Assembly: GCA_019358935.1 (NCBI GenBank)
Contig: JAHHIK010000067.1
Location: forward strand, 1 to 47,209
Length of the DNA stretch: 47,209 bases
Reading direction: 5' to 3'
From: Tolypothrix carrinoi HA7290-LM1
GTDB taxonomy: Bacteria > Cyanobacteriota > Cyanobacteriia > Cyanobacteriales > Nostocaceae
Shown: in pieces, positions 7,828 through 22,378 of the stretch
Numbering within the stretch: position 1 is the first letter of the stretch
Layout: each line of letters begins with the position of its first letter
Notes under the pieces: generated by a model
What the model saw: only the letters and a program-made list of their open reading frames with translations
Database searches by the model: none
Told to the model about the DNA's origin: nothing
Made by a program: the position numbers and the translations under genes

Positions 7828-8016
7828 TTACACGGGTTGACATTTGCCTGAGCGAATCAGTCCGACGCGACGGGCGATCGCTTCTCCTTCTGATGTAAAG
7901 GGTCCCCATTGTTCTATAATTTCTGGATTATCGTCTTCGGTTACTTCAAGGCTTGGGACGATTTCGCAATTTCCGGCAGGGCGCTTGACTATATGCCAAG
8001 ATTGTGCATTATTCAT
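7828..8016 (-). CDS. Small conserved cyanobacterial hypothetical protein
   Basis: W.IVK...G.CEI and WGPF.S..EAIARRVGLIRSGKCQP pattern. Confidence 0.75.
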   Translation of the reverse strand: MNNAQSWHIVKRPAGNCEIVPSLEVTEDDNPEIIEQWGPFTSEGEAIARRVGLIRSGKCQPV

Positions 8017-16056: not shown

Positions 16057-17598
16057 ATGACCCCAGCAGTTAGCACCGTAACCGTTTCCCCAATGGATCG
16101 GTATAATCAGGCGTTAATTGATAACCTTCATCCCCCAGATTGGGTTAACCCTGAACCTGCACCAAGTTACAACTTAGTTGTCATTGGTGCGGGTACGGCA
16201 GGATTGGTGACTGCTGCGGGTGCAGCGTTGTTAGGTGCGAAAGTGGCTTTGATAGAAAAGCATTTGATGGGTGGTGATTGTACTAATGTGGGTTGTGTAC
16301 CATCAAAAACGCTGATTCGCTCTGCGCGGGTAGTTGCAGATATCCATTACGCGCAAAAATTTGGCATTAACAAACCTCGTAATATTGATATTGATTTTCC
16401 CGCAGTGATGGAGCGGTTGCGACGAATACGGACAGAAATTAGTCCGAATGATTCTGCTAAACGCTTTCAGGAAGAATTCGGCGTAGATGTGTTTTTTGGC
16501 GAGGCTCGATTCAGAGATACTGATACGGTAGAAGTGGGAGAAAGTATTTTACACTTTAAAAAAGCGGCGATCGCTACAGGTTCGCGCCCTACTAAATTAC
16601 CGATTGATGGTTTAAATAAAGCTGGATATCTCACTAATGAAACGGTGTTTTCTCTGACACAATGCCCGAATCGATTGGCGGTAATTGGTGGAGGCTACAT
16701 CGGTTGCGAATTAGCTCAGACGTTTCAACGCTTAGGCTCACAAGTAATTTTACTACAAAAAGGTTCGCGTTTGCTGAGTCGTGAAGATGCTGAAGCAGCA
16801 GAGATTATTCAAAAAGCTTTTGTGCGCGAGGGTATTGAATTACTTTTTGAGTCGAAAATTAAACGCATTGAACGCAACGATGCAGAAAAAGTCATTCATT
16901 ACGAGATTAACGGACAAGAGTCAGCGCTTGCAGTTGATGAAATTTTAGTAGCGACAGGGCGATCGCCTAATGTGGAAAACTTGAATCTGGAAGCTGTGGG
17001 TGTAGAATACGATGAAAAGCAAGGTGTTATTATCAATGACTACTTACAGACAACGAATCCCCGGATTTATGCGGTGGGTGATGTCTGCATGAAGTGGAAG
17101 TTTACTCATGCTGCTGATGCTGCGGCTCGGATTGTGATTCAAAATGCGCTGTTTTCGATTTTTGGGCTGGGACGTAAAAAGCTGAGTTCTTTAATTATGC
17201 CTTGGTGTACTTATACCGACCCAGAAGTGGCTCATGTAGGTATGTATCCGGAAGAAGCTGAGGAGAAGGGTATTGAAGTTGATACATTTAGCGTTCCTCT
17301 CAACGATGTTGATCGAGCGATCGTTGATGGGGAAACTGAAGGATTTACCAAGTTATATGTAAAAAAGGGAACAGATAAGATTTTAGGAGCAACGATAGTC
17401 GCTCGACATGCGGGTGAGATGATTAGCGAGGTGACTTTAGCAATAACTAATAATTTGGGTTTGAGTGCGATCGCCAAAACAATTCACCCATATCCTACCC
17501 AAGCAGAAGCTATCCGCAAAGCCGCTGATAAGTATAGCATTGCCCGTTTAAACAGCTTTAAGAAGTTATCCTCGGCTTGGTTAGCGTGGAAACGTTAA
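16057..17598 (+). CDS. Pyridine nucleotide-disulfide oxidoreductase (MerA/LpdA-like)
   Basis: GAGTAG, GGDCTNVGCVPSK, GGGYIG, AVGD, HPYPTQAE; no C-terminal Cys pair. Confidence 0.9.
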   Translation: MTPAVSTVTVSPMDRYNQALIDNLHPPDWVNPEPAPSYNLVVIGAGTAGLVTAAGAALLGAKVALIEKHLMGGDCTNVGCVPSKTLIRSARVVADIHYAQKFGINKPRNIDIDFPAVMERLRRIRTEISPNDSAKRFQEEFGVDVFFGEARFRDTDTVEVGESILHFKKAAIATGSRPTKLPIDGLNKAGYLTNETVFSLTQCPNRLAVIGGGYIGCELAQTFQRLGSQVILLQKGSRLLSREDAEAAEIIQKAFVREGIELLFESKIKRIERNDAEKVIHYEINGQESALAVDEILVATGRSPNVENLNLEAVGVEYDEKQGVIINDYLQTTNPRIYAVGDVCMKWKFTHAADAAARIVIQNALFSIFGLGRKKLSSLIMPWCTYTDPEVAHVGMYPEEAEEKGIEVDTFSVPLNDVDRAIVDGETEGFTKLYVKKGTDKILGATIVARHAGEMISEVTLAITNNLGLSAIAKTIHPYPTQAEAIRKAADKYSIARLNSFKKLSSAWLAWKR

Positions 17599-18339: not shown

Positions 18340-18714
18340 ATGAAAAAGATGATAATTGCCTTGTTTATCATGCTTTCCTTGACCCTATCGCTAGGTCAGG
18401 GGCAAGCTCTTGCTGCAAGCGACTGCTTGAAAACGCTAAATACTGGCGCAGCTACAACCATACCAGTATTTTACGAAGACCAAGCTGCTTTCTACGGCTG
18501 GTCGGGAGGTGTGATTACTAATGATATGTACTACAACTCCTGCGGTTCAACTGTGACTCTCAAAGTTAACTATGCTGACTGGAACAAAGCCCGAGAAGCA
18601 GGAAAGCTAGATGGAATTCGATATATATACAAAGCAAAGGATGGTCCAATTCAGGTTAGGAAGGTTGCAGGAACTCAACCCACGGATGTGAAAATTGAGG
18701 ATTTCTACAGCTAA
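18340..18714 (+). CDS. Secreted hypothetical protein
   Basis: GAGG RBS, signal peptide ending ALA, two Cys, downstream hairpin. Confidence 0.75.
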   Translation: MKKMIIALFIMLSLTLSLGQGQALAASDCLKTLNTGAATTIPVFYEDQAAFYGWSGGVITNDMYYNSCGSTVTLKVNYADWNKAREAGKLDGIRYIYKAKDGPIQVRKVAGTQPTDVKIEDFYS

Positions 18715-18722
18715 GGAAGACT

Positions 18723-18755
18723 AAGACCCTCACCAATTTACTGATGAGGGTTTTC
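18723..18755 (+). terminator. Putative intrinsic terminator
   Basis: GACCCTCA..TGAGGGTT stem followed by T residues. Confidence 0.5.
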
Positions 18756-18884
18756 GCTTTGAAGCTGACATCATCGGCTAGTCTTTCCTAAATTGGGAGA
18801 ATGTATTCAGAATGGCGATCGCTCTTTTAGTCTGCAAGACTCGTGAGCGATCGCACTATTGTTGCTCACTAACAACCCTCATCA

Positions 18885-18945
18885 GTTAACTTTTAATCGC
18901 ACCTCTGACTAAAATCACCGTACTCTCTACATTAGATGCGATCGC
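18885..18945 (-). repeat. Duplicate of the CLC gene 3' end (matches 19504-19564), bounded by HIP1
   Basis: 61 bp with 4 mismatches; includes the stop codon and ends at GCGATCGC. Confidence 0.92.
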
Positions 18946-18955
18946 GAAGTGACTT

Positions 18956-19453
18956 TTATTTTTTTTCAGCGCAGCCTTCTAAAACTGTGTTATTCAGGAT
19001 GAAAGTTGCTGAGTAAGGATACTGTTTGTCAGACATTCCATCGCTACAGGTACTATCTTTCTTAATAATTAACATACTGTTGGGTTTACCCTGCAATCGG
19101 TAAACTCTTACTATGTCTGCGGTACGCCCTGCGGCTTTGATTGGTGTAACATAAGGAAAAGTTTGCTTTTTTGCATTTGGCGAAGAGTAGACAATTCCGC
19201 TTTTGCTTACAGTTACATTCCAAAACGGTTCAGTACCTACGCTATTAAATTCATCAATTTTAGTGTTATTTTGAGCTATTAAAGGTGGTGCGTCATTGGC
19301 GAAACTGCTATTACCAGTGAATAAGATTGCACCAAATCCGAGTATAATCACATAGCTAATACCATTTGGGATTTGAGATTTGTTGCTATGCAAGCGTTTC
19401 AACAATCCATTTGTCGCAATCATTTTTTATATTGGTATAATTTTATTTTTCAT
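18956..19453 (-). CDS. COG3650-like secreted protein with a MITE in its 5' end
   Basis: GTEPFW and CSDGMSD..YPY..GCA motifs. Original start MKNKI at 19453; the current open frame starts at 19423. Confidence 0.75.
19360..19437. mobile_element. 78-bp MITE with a TAA target duplication
   Basis: TAA|TACCATTT..ATTGGTA|TAA; removal restores MKNKISYVIILG. Confidence 0.8.
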
Positions 19454-19504
19454 GTTTTAATTTTCACATGAAATATGTTTATTTTGCGTCTTTGTAGATA
19501 AAGG

Positions 19505-22378
19505 TTAACTTTTAATCGCACCCCTGACTAAAATCACTGTACTCTCTACACTGGATGCGATCGCTTCCGGAATATTGCCTTTAACCGCTTGCTGTAACAA
19601 TCCTTCTCGCGAAGCACCTAAAACCACTACATCATAACCTTCGGTTTTTACTAAGTTAATTATTCCTTCAGAAACCGATTCCGCTTTCACAGGTTCAGCG
19701 GTAACAGTGCTAGACAGTTTACGACGACGAATCAATTGACGAATCGATTGTTCTAAAACTGTCATATCTGGTTTTAACTCAGATGGCTTAAATACCCGTG
19801 TGAGGCGAATTTTCGGATCTTTCCCCAATGTCACTAACGCAGGTAGTAATTTAATTGCCAATAAAGCATTCGGACCACCTGCCATTGGTACTAACCAACT
19901 GTTGAAGCGAGGAGTGGGAGAGAGGGGGAGGGGGGGAGTGGGGGAGGGGGGAGAGGGGGGAGACAAGGGAGAGGGGGGAGACAAGGGAGACAAGGGAGAG
20001 GGGGGAGACAAGGGAGACAAGGGAGAGGGGGGAGACAAGGGAGAGGGGGGAGACAAGGGAGAAATTTTTTCATGTCCCCCTTGTCTTCCTTGTCCCCCTT
20101 GTCTTCCTTGTCCCCCTTGTCTTCCTTGTCCCCCATGTCCCCCTTGTCCCCCTTGTCCCCCATGTCCCCCTTGTCTCCTTTCCTCAACACTCGCAGCCAA
20201 CTTCACTAGCAATAAATCGCAGGTAGCTTGCTTAATTAAGGTATCAACAACATTACCAAAAATCTTACCTGGGGTAGATGTATTTCCTTTCCATCCCATT
20301 AAAAGTATATCTATATGTTGTTCGTTGATAGTTTCTAAAATTGCTTGGGCTGCATCGTGAGCAACGCGAATCTGTGTATGTAGAGGAATTTCCCACTTTT
20401 TAGCCATGACTTCGGCTTGTCTAAGCAAGCGACGACTTTTTGCAGTTCTGACTGTTGTTTCTGATGGGGAACTGTGGCGGGATACTAAAATAACTTGGAT
20501 GCATTCTATTTCATAATGGCGATCGCGGGCAATTGAGAAAGCCATTTCTAATAATGTTGCTGCTGTTTCCGGATTCGCTATTGGTACTAATAATTTGCCT
20601 CTGCCAATGCTAGGCGATCGCGTTTGATAAACTACATAAGAAGGTTCGGGTTGCGGTCCTGACGATGCATTTTTACAATTAAGATGATCTGCTTCCGCGC
20701 GAATTATATCTGCACGGGTAATAATCCCAATCAGCCTTCGTCCTTGGAGTACCGGCAAGCGACTGATTTTATAACGGTCTAATAAATAGAGTACATTGCT
20801 TAAGTTATGGGTGGGTGATACTGTCACCGGACTGCTAGTCATGATTTCCTTTAAAGGAATATCATTTGCTAGATTGCGTGAGCCTATTTTGAGTAAATCT
20901 GATTGGGTGACAATTCCGACTAACTTATTTTCTTCTACCACCGGGAAACCACGATGATGAGAACGGGCAAATGCCTGCATTGCTTCTTCTAAAGTTGTCT
21001 CTGCTTCTAGAGTTTCCACTCGTTCCTGCATTACTTGTTTTGCAGTTAACTGTGTCAATATTCCTTCACTAGAAGCTTGTCTATTAATGGTTATGCCATT
21101 TATAAACAGAAGTTTATCATACAACGAGCCTGGTACAACTTTGTCAGCAACTAAGTAAGATGTCACAGAAACAATCATTAAAGGTAGCACCAGATTGAAA
21201 TCTGTAGTCATCTCAAATACAATCACAATTGCTGTAATTGGTACTTTAGAAACCGCGCTGAAAAATCCTCCCATTCCCGCTAGTGCATAAGTTGTCGGAG
21301 AACCTCCACCCAAAAAGTGGAACTCGCCTACACCGACTAAATAGCCTAAAGTAGAACCTAAGATGAGACTGGGTGCGAATAAACCTCCCGGCGCTCCCGA
21401 ACCAAATGCAATCAAAGTTAAGATAAACTGAGCTACAAAGGCGATCGCTGCCCAAGAAGCATTGGCATTACCAGTAATTATTTGTTCTCGCAAGCCAGTA
21501 TTATCACGAAAATACGCTGGCAGCATTGCCATGATAATTCCGGAAACCAAACCAGCTAACGCCACCCGCAACGGTAAGCTGATGTGCAGACTGCGATAAA
21601 ATTTTATACTTGCAATCAAACCGCGATTAAATACCGCACCTAGCAACCCCGCAAAAATTCCCAACAGTACGAAAAAGGGAATTTCCGGAATCGAGAAGCT
21701 GGTAGAATACTTTATCGATTCTAGGTTAAGTAGCAAACTGCCACCACCCAACAGTCGAGAAATGACTCCACCAATAAACGAAGCGATGATGGCGGTTCCC
21801 AGAGTCATTCCCGATAAATCTTGAAGTAACTCCTCGACAATAAATAATACCCCAGCAATGGGAGCGTTGAAAGCTGCTGCCAAACCTGCACCCGCACCTG
21901 CCGCAATCATTTGACGGCGATGATCTGGAGAAGTGGGAACCAAGCGACTCATTCCCGCAGCCAAACCCGCACCTAATTGGACGGTAGGTCCTTGTCGTCC
22001 CAAAGTTATTCCCGAACCTAAAGCAATAATTGCACTAATTAACTTGACACCTGCCACGCGCCATGATAATTTCATTGGTACATTCGCAAGCGAAGCTTTA
22101 ACTTGAGGAATACCACTACCAGAAGCCTCAGGTGCAAACCTTTCCACTAAAAATCCAGCGAGAAAGCCAAAAGTCACACCAACTGCTGGTAATACGAACC
22201 ACGCAGGAAAAACATGGGACGTATGAACTCGCCATGTCCCTAACCATCCCGATCCGAATTTCAGAAATACAGCAGATAAAGCAGCGACGACACCAATCAA
22301 ACAAGCTTCGGCGATCGCTAAACCTCTTCTAGGTTGCCAAAAACGGCGAAACCGCTGATTAAGAACAGCAAGCGACAT
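19505..22378 (-). CDS. CLC chloride channel/transporter with CBS and USP domains
   Basis: GSGIP, GRQGP, AFNAPIAG, GGLFAP; CBS pair; two USP-like domains; in-frame repeat insert. Confidence 0.93.
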   Translation of the reverse strand: MSLAVLNQRFRRFWQPRRGLAIAEACLIGVVAALSAVFLKFGSGWLGTWRVHTSHVFPAWFVLPAVGVTFGFLAGFLVERFAPEASGSGIPQVKASLANVPMKLSWRVAGVKLISAIIALGSGITLGRQGPTVQLGAGLAAGMSRLVPTSPDHRRQMIAAGAGAGLAAAFNAPIAGVLFIVEELLQDLSGMTLGTAIIASFIGGVISRLLGGGSLLLNLESIKYSTSFSIPEIPFFVLLGIFAGLLGAVFNRGLIASIKFYRSLHISLPLRVALAGLVSGIIMAMLPAYFRDNTGLREQIITGNANASWAAIAFVAQFILTLIAFGSGAPGGLFAPSLILGSTLGYLVGVGEFHFLGGGSPTTYALAGMGGFFSAVSKVPITAIVIVFEMTTDFNLVLPLMIVSVTSYLVADKVVPGSLYDKLLFINGITINRQASSEGILTQLTAKQVMQERVETLEAETTLEEAMQAFARSHHRGFPVVEENKLVGIVTQSDLLKIGSRNLANDIPLKEIMTSSPVTVSPTHNLSNVLYLLDRYKISRLPVLQGRRLIGIITRADIIRAEADHLNCKNASSGPQPEPSYVVYQTRSPSIGRGKLLVPIANPETAATLLEMAFSIARDRHYEIECIQVILVSRHSSPSETTVRTAKSRRLLRQAEVMAKKWEIPLHTQIRVAHDAAQAILETINEQHIDILLMGWKGNTSTPGKIFGNVVDTLIKQATCDLLLVKLAASVEERRQGGHGGQGGQGGHGGQGRQGGQGRQGGQGRQGGHEKISPLSPPSPLSPPSPLSPLSPPSPLSPLSPPSPLSPPSPPSPTPPLPLSPTPRFNSWLVPMAGGPNALLAIKLLPALVTLGKDPKIRLTRVFKPSELKPDMTVLEQSIRQLIRRRKLSSTVTAEPVKAESVSEGIINLVKTEGYDVVVLGASREGLLQQAVKGNIPEAIASSVESTVILVRGAIKS
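19910..20182. repeat. Inverted G-rich/C-rich tandem repeat inside the CLC coding sequence
   Basis: GGGGGAGACAAGGGAGA units followed by CCTTGTC(C/T) 9-mer units. Confidence 0.9.

Follow-up and report, generated by a model that had tools for sequence, protein, structure and literature searches.

A duplicated CLC gene end and its cargo

How did a gene come to lie between two copies of the 3' end of a CLC chloride channel gene, and did HIP1 (highly iterated palindrome 1), the octamer at which both copies appear to begin, bring about the join? The locus is found on contig JAHHIK010000067.1 of Tolypothrix carrinoi HA7290-LM1, of which positions 1 to 47,209 are here called the window. The CLC gene, a cargo open reading frame (ORF), and an orphan CLC 3' end follow one another on the minus strand, and "behind" is used here for 3' in the direction of the CLC gene. 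The original prediction held that foreign DNA had been joined by homology on one side and by an 8-bp crossover between HIP1 sites on the other. The locus holds a genuine capture scar. Its far join was probably not made by the mechanism proposed, and a general role for HIP1, in the form of a bias, has strong statistical support. In the reading that we favor, with a probability of roughly 0.6, a CLC-cargo allele was captured in a one-sided manner and its far join fell inside a small insert in the CLC tail of the recipient. SDR5 is a 21-nt small dispersed repeat of Nostocaceae inserted between bases 3 and 4 of HIP1, according to what the accessible parts of three papers (PMC4390886, PMC5861425, and PMC13756078) say of the work of Elhai et al. 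(2008). The insert described here has the same insertion point and is found as a half copy at a gene-capture junction; because it has 24 nt and not the reported 21 nt, it is termed SDR5-like, the likeness being one of insertion point. The elements of the locus are as follows.

19505..22378, minus strand: CLC chloride channel gene with CBS and Usp domains (957 aa; PF00654, PF00571, and PF00582), the homology anchor
19504..19564, minus strand: working copy of the CLC 3' end, from the in-gene HIP1 (19564-19557), which is kept in 9/9 matching same-genus relatives
18956..19423, minus strand: cargo ORF, 155 aa, a hypothetical protein conserved in cyanobacteria (from the ORF list and homologue matches)
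18955..18955, minus strand: visible join, a single A between the cargo stop codon and the insert arm (from comparison with donor-type loci)
18946..18954, minus strand: right arm (AGTCACTTC) of the 24-nt SDR5-like insert, matching whole inserts in HIP1 sites; the left arm is missing
18885..18945, minus strand: orphan CLC 3' end (from repeat comparison), the HIP1 of which (18945-18938) doubles as the right end of the insert

The two 61-nt direct repeats (18885-18945 and 19504-19564) are identical at 57/61 positions and lie 619 bp apart. In gene direction, both copies start at a HIP1 octamer (18945-18938 and 19564-19557, respectively) and extend to one base beyond the CLC stop codon. As described previously, a gene lies between them and they differ in four codons: TCC/TCT, AGT/AAT (S/N), ACA/ACG, and AGG/AGA. 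Each of the four orphan variants was found in the intact CLC allele of some relative, and both copies are therefore allele-like, in agreement with the original prediction.

Relatives with and without the cargo

The genome under study is designated G000, and the sites numbered with C lie in it; other G numbers denote relatives, L numbers denote individual loci, and X5 and X7 are metagenome contigs. The same-genus comparison comprised 10 genomes, 9 of which had a match at the CLC locus, and metagenome contigs, which drop rare forms, were examined from 4 of 24 listed runs, those with small word shares being left aside. Among named records, the closest CLC ends belonged to the Tolypothrix, Hassallia, and Nostoc group, possibly overlapping with the compared genomes and with no separate count.

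Donor-like relatives exist, as had been expected. In G008, G002, and L031 (on a metagenome contig), the CLC gene is followed by the cargo and an oxidoreductase gene, without any orphan, and the cargo comes directly after the CLC gene in the donor-type loci (L003, L005, and L031). Five of the nine matching same-genus relatives (G003, G004, G005, G006, and G010) are cargo-less at the CLC end; G001, in which the DNA behind the CLC end was not readable, was left unclassified. The cargo-orphan join seen in G000 is the same in G009, and the DNA behind the G009 orphan equals the DNA behind the intact CLC end in G006. Contigs from two further metagenomes also bridge the join (X5, 18400-19564; X7, 18876-19352). 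Two genes of the window mark these flanks.

18340..18714, plus strand: 124-aa gene, located after the CLC end in cargo-less G006 and after the orphan in G000 and G009; absent from the corresponding position in donor-type loci
16057..17598, plus strand: FAD-containing oxidoreductase gene of the PRK06370 type, directly behind the cargo in donor-type loci and containing the donors' first post-cargo HIP1

On the basis of these sequence comparisons, the layout would be that of a donor allele placed before the displaced tail of a recipient, probably with later shuffling of alleles. The tail closest to the orphan, with one difference, is the intact, cargo-bearing copy of G009. The near identity of the two G009 tails is what a tandem duplication in place, within one CLC-cargo genome and followed by decay, would give. 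Such an origin is highly improbable and largely refuted, since the DNA behind the orphan is of the cargo-less type (in G009 as in G006) and not of the donor type, and since the differences between the copies are standing allelic variants and not decay.

An independent duplication of the CLC end was identified in another genus (G021, locus L051). It is 180 bp long (90.6%), has a spacing of 2.46 kb, and encloses two genes other than the cargo of G000. The 3' end of the CLC gene is a recurrent capture slot, and because the G021 duplicate starts 121 bp upstream of HIP1, HIP1 is not needed for duplication at this gene. No integrase was found between the repeats, where the unit has one long ORF, or among the six proteins scanned at and around the site, which agrees with the integrase-free capture proposed before. 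Integrases acting at gene 3' ends produce attL and attR, by which the gene end is restored and the old end is displaced. The CLC site is alike in its restored end; it is unlike these sites in that the 619-bp unit has no integrase and in that the orphan length varies at the CLC gene (61-70 bp here and 180 bp in G021).

Structure of the far join

Identity with the donors ends at the cargo stop codon. None of the three donors has a HIP1 at the cargo end, nor is there an insert arm, and their first HIP1 is located 181-188 bp past the cargo stop. The predicted 8-bp HIP1 crossover does not fit this join (18954/18956), which lies inside the SDR5-like insert. A third copy of the CLC end was identified at G000:C97:29628-29752 (L070; also L045), and it matches the orphan over 70 bp. 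The identity said to start exactly at HIP1 does so between the two window copies but not against the C97 copy, where the match runs 9 bp beyond HIP1. The C97 copy contains the 24-nt insert whole, within the same CLC HIP1, and positions 18954-18946 match its right arm. It is followed by 21-nt tandem repeats, has no HIP1 at its left edge, and sits in a broken gene, which we take to be DUF4079-like.

The insert is located between bases 3 and 4 of HIP1, as seen by comparison of C97 with the intact CLC gene and in the 14 whole copies present in the genome. A left arm accompanies 18 of 20 right-arm matches (judged by eye). The exact 9-mer precedes HIP1 at 3 of 15,805 flanks, and the two other than the orphan are whole inserts. 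A CLC-end fragment bearing a whole insert in this HIP1 was found in G000, G009, and X7. Since the orphan starts in the middle of an insert and the working copy has none, HIP1 only looks like the edge of the repeat.

The CLC-end fragments of G000 and G009 have different insert loops, a hint of conversion between copies of the insert. At two other sites (G000:C14:5708-5762 and C184 near 8282), 24-nt inserts have a second small element nested in the loop, which suggests that the loop itself is a target.

In the reading that we favor, homologous recombination within CLC would have put the CLC-cargo allele of a donor in place of the end of a cargo-less CLC allele, and the donor's far end would have been joined illegitimately to the recipient's own CLC tail, leaving that tail as the orphan. 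The recipient tail may have carried the 24-nt insert in its HIP1, as suggested by the half insert and by the whole copy in the third CLC-end fragment. Inserts are tolerated in long ORFs (6 of the 14 whole copies are inside ORFs of at least 150 codons), and a functional CLC allele could thus have had one too. The repeat would then seem to start at HIP1 because the insert targets HIP1, and not because two octamers crossed over.

Two routes to a join inside the insert can be envisaged, and we give them about even odds. The join may have been made directly in the hairpin of the insert, or it may have been made at the left edge of the insert via AAGCG, with subsequent loss of about 15 bases. The donors continue with TAAGCG, and the CLC sequence before the insertion point ends in GAAGCG; the two share five bases (AAGCG), a string with a frequency of 0.0014 per position. 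A join at AAGCG together with the loss of ~15 bases reproduces the present sequence except for one base. The microhomology would then be 5 bp at the left edge of the insert, given the later deletion that is assumed. At most ~15 bp of recipient DNA was lost, and 61-70 bp was duplicated. Hairpin-driven stalling was unsupported by energy, the folding of the whole insert in context being not above that of shuffles (z, -0.41).

Several observations weigh against a far join inside an insert in the recipient tail. The microhomology visible at the join is at most 2 bases (0-2 bp), and one A is left unexplained. Empty-site relatives were predicted and five cargo-less genomes were found, but no cargo-less allele matches the orphan well, each of these genomes having 4-8 mismatches to it in 60 bases. 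In 389 family genomes (searched by exact pattern, with no positive control), no CLC gene was found that is intact and has this HIP1 interrupted by an insert, nor was there one among 14 loci examined. At C97, the copy with the whole insert shows decay, its insert is of the other end variant, and two further bases differ from the orphan, so the insert may postdate orphaning. No intermediate with a whole insert behind the cargo was seen among the loci compared. Finally, homology-facilitated illegitimate recombination (HFIR), a process that the site resembles in other respects, usually deletes recipient DNA according to the available part of PMC3240628, whereas recipient DNA is duplicated at CLC. 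HFIR is alike in having one homologous anchor, here the CLC gene common to donor-type and cargo-less alleles, and one illegitimate join and in bringing in a foreign gene without an integrase. It is described with RecA-dependent uptake of linear DNA by transformation, with a recipient deletion similar in size to the insertion, and with 3-10 bp of microhomology. The CLC join lies in a small repeat and has 0-2 bp as seen, or 5 bp on the assumption of a subsequent deletion. Because the CLC site duplicates instead of deleting, we do not file it as a member of HFIR.

The state of the C97 copy bears on another explanation, in which the orphan is older and has been trimmed. The first duplicate would have had its start upstream of HIP1; once this copy was dead, it would have received the insert and supplied the piece now at C97, before a deletion shortened the orphan to the middle of the insert. 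Such a history would accord with the G021 orphan of 180 bp, which begins 121 bp upstream of HIP1, with the decayed C97 copy, which retains about 35 bp of upstream CLC, and with the absence of an intact gene with the insert from all 389 genomes; secondary trimming of an orphan was also seen at C112 (see below). No longer orphan is present at this locus in G000, G009, X5, or X7, however, and the downstream neighbor of the C97 copy differs, and we consider the trimmed orphan to be improbable.

A Campbell-type single crossover would produce the same final layout, if a donor fragment reaching from the middle of the insert to the cargo stop was circularized and integrated via the 61-bp homology. The G009 tails differ at 1 of the first 55 bases, and the last bases of the orphan are of the cargo-less type, both of which are in line with such an event. 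In the accessible part of a preprint (bioRxiv 10.1101/2024.09.10.611283), integration in PCC 7002 is 7- to about 100-fold higher when a homology arm terminates in HIP1, an effect that could, by analogy, also favor short homologies ending in HIP1. As in Campbell-type insertion-duplication, the cargo lies between direct copies of a gene end. The homology is very short, with just 61 bp; a donor having the insert and the cargo together is required and was not seen in the three donors; and no circle or excised joint was present in the contigs of the four runs, which drop rare forms. This explanation is thus unlikely. The join inside an insert of the recipient remains our preferred reading.

HIP1 at repeat edges in the genome

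HIP1 occurs at 7,903 sites in the genome, one per 1,007 bp. A self-comparison yielded 472 local direct repeats (30-600 bp, at least 85% identity, and at most 12 kb apart), from which 323 multi-copy or tandem-like repeats were dropped and 149 were kept. In 16 of the 149, an edge coincides exactly with HIP1 in both copies (0.30 expected), and 25 have an edge at most 3 bp from HIP1 (2.1 expected; shifted control mean, 2.7, with a maximum of 8 in 500). Counted as independent loci, 19/118 have a HIP1 edge within 3 bp, and 27/56 HIP1 sites inside repeats are within 3 bp of an edge (7.6 expected). Gene-end orphans start at HIP1 in 3 of 22 cases (about 0.09 expected from HIP1 density) and elsewhere in 19. 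The genome-wide excess of duplicate edges at HIP1 that had been anticipated is thus present. In 1.2 Mb of two relatives, HIP1 edges were found in 4/25 repeats (0.36 expected), one being the same event as in G000. Among cross-genome alignment ends, 15/1,313 are exactly at HIP1 (13/891 with G001 and 2/422 with G009) and 23 are within 3 bp (2.8 expected).

These counts show statistically that HIP1 is a real recombination hotspot in the genus, for deletions, switches, and some gene-end captures, by an inferred mechanism. It is a hotspot and not a requirement, and the CLC scar is a HIP1-biased variant of one-sided recombination. With about 1-2% of breakpoints and 3/22 gene-end orphans, the share of HIP1 amounts to a bias and not to the main route of gene gain. 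That natural duplicates have edges exactly at HIP1 50-fold more often than expected is evidence, at the level of populations, of DNA cutting or joining there; such edges can be counted in any cyanobacterial genome and offer a testable lead on HIP1 function.

Three other origins of such edges were rejected. Simple HIP1-cargo-HIP1 insertion is not a common class, since only 2/49 clean indels (at least 100 bp) touch HIP1 and none does so on both sides. Gradual decay down to a conserved HIP1 was dismissed, as identity over the 40 bp beyond the edge is 24% at 27 HIP1 edges, compared with 27% at 269 other edges; with flank identity no higher than elsewhere, the edges are sharp. Halves of SDR5-like inserts are not a general cause, because 2/49 edge flanks resemble multi-copy insert ends, against a background of 1.9%.

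Individual HIP1-edged loci

Relatives were compared for 17 of the 19 HIP1-edged loci. At C56, HIP1 is present in both parents at the join, and at C112, a 348-bp deletion between two HIP1 sites was found inside an orphan. The partner has a 7-of-8 HIP1 match at C31; at C54 it has HIP1, with the switch lying some bases inward. At C1 and at the CLC site, HIP1 is missing from the partner. Two loci, C58:24780-25949 (L052) and C107:20570-21403 (L058), are gene-end captures with HIP1 at the orphan start and clean empty sites in relatives; no donors for these orphans were found among the relatives, which have only empty sites or the same layout. The remaining loci are ambiguous or lack an informative partner. 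Crossovers at the 8-bp HIP1 do happen, the clearest being a deletion and a switch, and no capture is shown to use one.

The existence of HIP1-by-HIP1 joins at C56 and C112 and the strong edge enrichment give some ground for an explanation closer to the original prediction, in which the CLC far join was made between HIP1 sites, at the donor's next HIP1 or at a donor HIP1 regenerated by an insert, and an insert and a deletion later reshaped the junction. The orphan's insert variant does end in a full HIP1. Such a course would require three events, and the cargo ends of the three donors, with neither HIP1 nor insert arm before the HIP1 at 181-188 bp, do not provide the site. In addition, the same insert subfamily is found in CLC context at C97, and no more than 14 of some 7,900 HIP1 sites contain it. 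A HIP1-by-HIP1 origin of this join is therefore improbable. The CLC site also calls for caution, as a HIP1 edge between copies may have been left by an insert that targets HIP1 or by a deletion that came later; donor and empty alleles are thus needed before any HIP1 crossover is called.

A broader and tentative idea, which we rate as rather unlikely, is that an activity in Nostocales opens DNA at GCG^ATCGC of HIP1 and joins it to any end at hand. It might place SDR5-like inserts, make HIP1-to-HIP1 deletions, and, with HIP1 required on just one of the partners, provide the second join when genes are captured without an integrase behind conserved gene ends. In that case, the CLC scar would be a join via AAGCG that was later blurred by loss of half the insert, and C1, where a HIP1 end stands against a HIP1-less partner, could be another such join.

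Two of the HIP1-edged sites have further peculiarities. The C58 orphan has an insert-like end outside its HIP1, and in G001 two cassettes are stacked there. At G000:C52:21583-36372 (L067), an intact long gene, which has a 24-nt insert placed in frame within a HIP1 close to its end, is followed by two orphan tails, each starting at or next to HIP1, with several cargo genes between. The cargo between HIP1-edged repeats (L054, L056, L058, L059, L061, and L065) is often, we presume from N-terminal sequence, of the small toxin-antitoxin, Uma2, or XisH/XisI type.

Relation to published HIP1 recombination

HIP1-linked recombination includes a smtB deletion (Gupta 1993) and plasmid recombination in PCC 7002 (Akiyama 1998), as cited in the available parts of PMC4390886, PMC13756078, and PMC9239245. 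The joins at C56 and C112 are of the same kind, whereas the CLC site has no donor-side HIP1. As far as these sources describe them, the published cases concern individual loci or constructs made in the laboratory. The literature searched, in which most subscription papers were not covered, contained no genome-wide count of natural duplicate edges that fall at HIP1. In their accessible parts, the papers of 2015, 2018, and 2026 (PMC4390886, PMC5861425, and PMC13756078) call the function of HIP1 unresolved, and one of them states that no evidence ties HIP1 to homologous recombination, with mention of site-specific cases.

The cargo ORF and other features

For the cargo, a putative COG3650-like gene according to the original prediction, no family name was found in Pfam, and no NCBIfam family was significant. 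It is a "hypothetical protein" in the ESM Atlas and in 5/6 plasmid matches. An upstream ATG (19453) runs into a stop codon in G000 and reads through in G009, and the N terminus of the cargo therefore varies between strains. Two minor features are as follows.

19359..19438, minus strand: repeated piece of ~80 bp at the cargo 5' end, present in G000, G009, and G008 and absent from L005 and L031
18726..18751, minus strand: hairpin resembling a terminator, located between the orphan and the 124-aa gene that converges on it (consensus match only)

At 18815-18854 of the window, a 40-bp piece lies between two HIP1 sites; in G006, it has the opposite direction relative to CLC, and the HIP1 there carries another small insert. 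Within the Usp region of the CLC gene (19921-20181), 9-nt repeat blocks were found in an inverted arrangement and are translated in frame.

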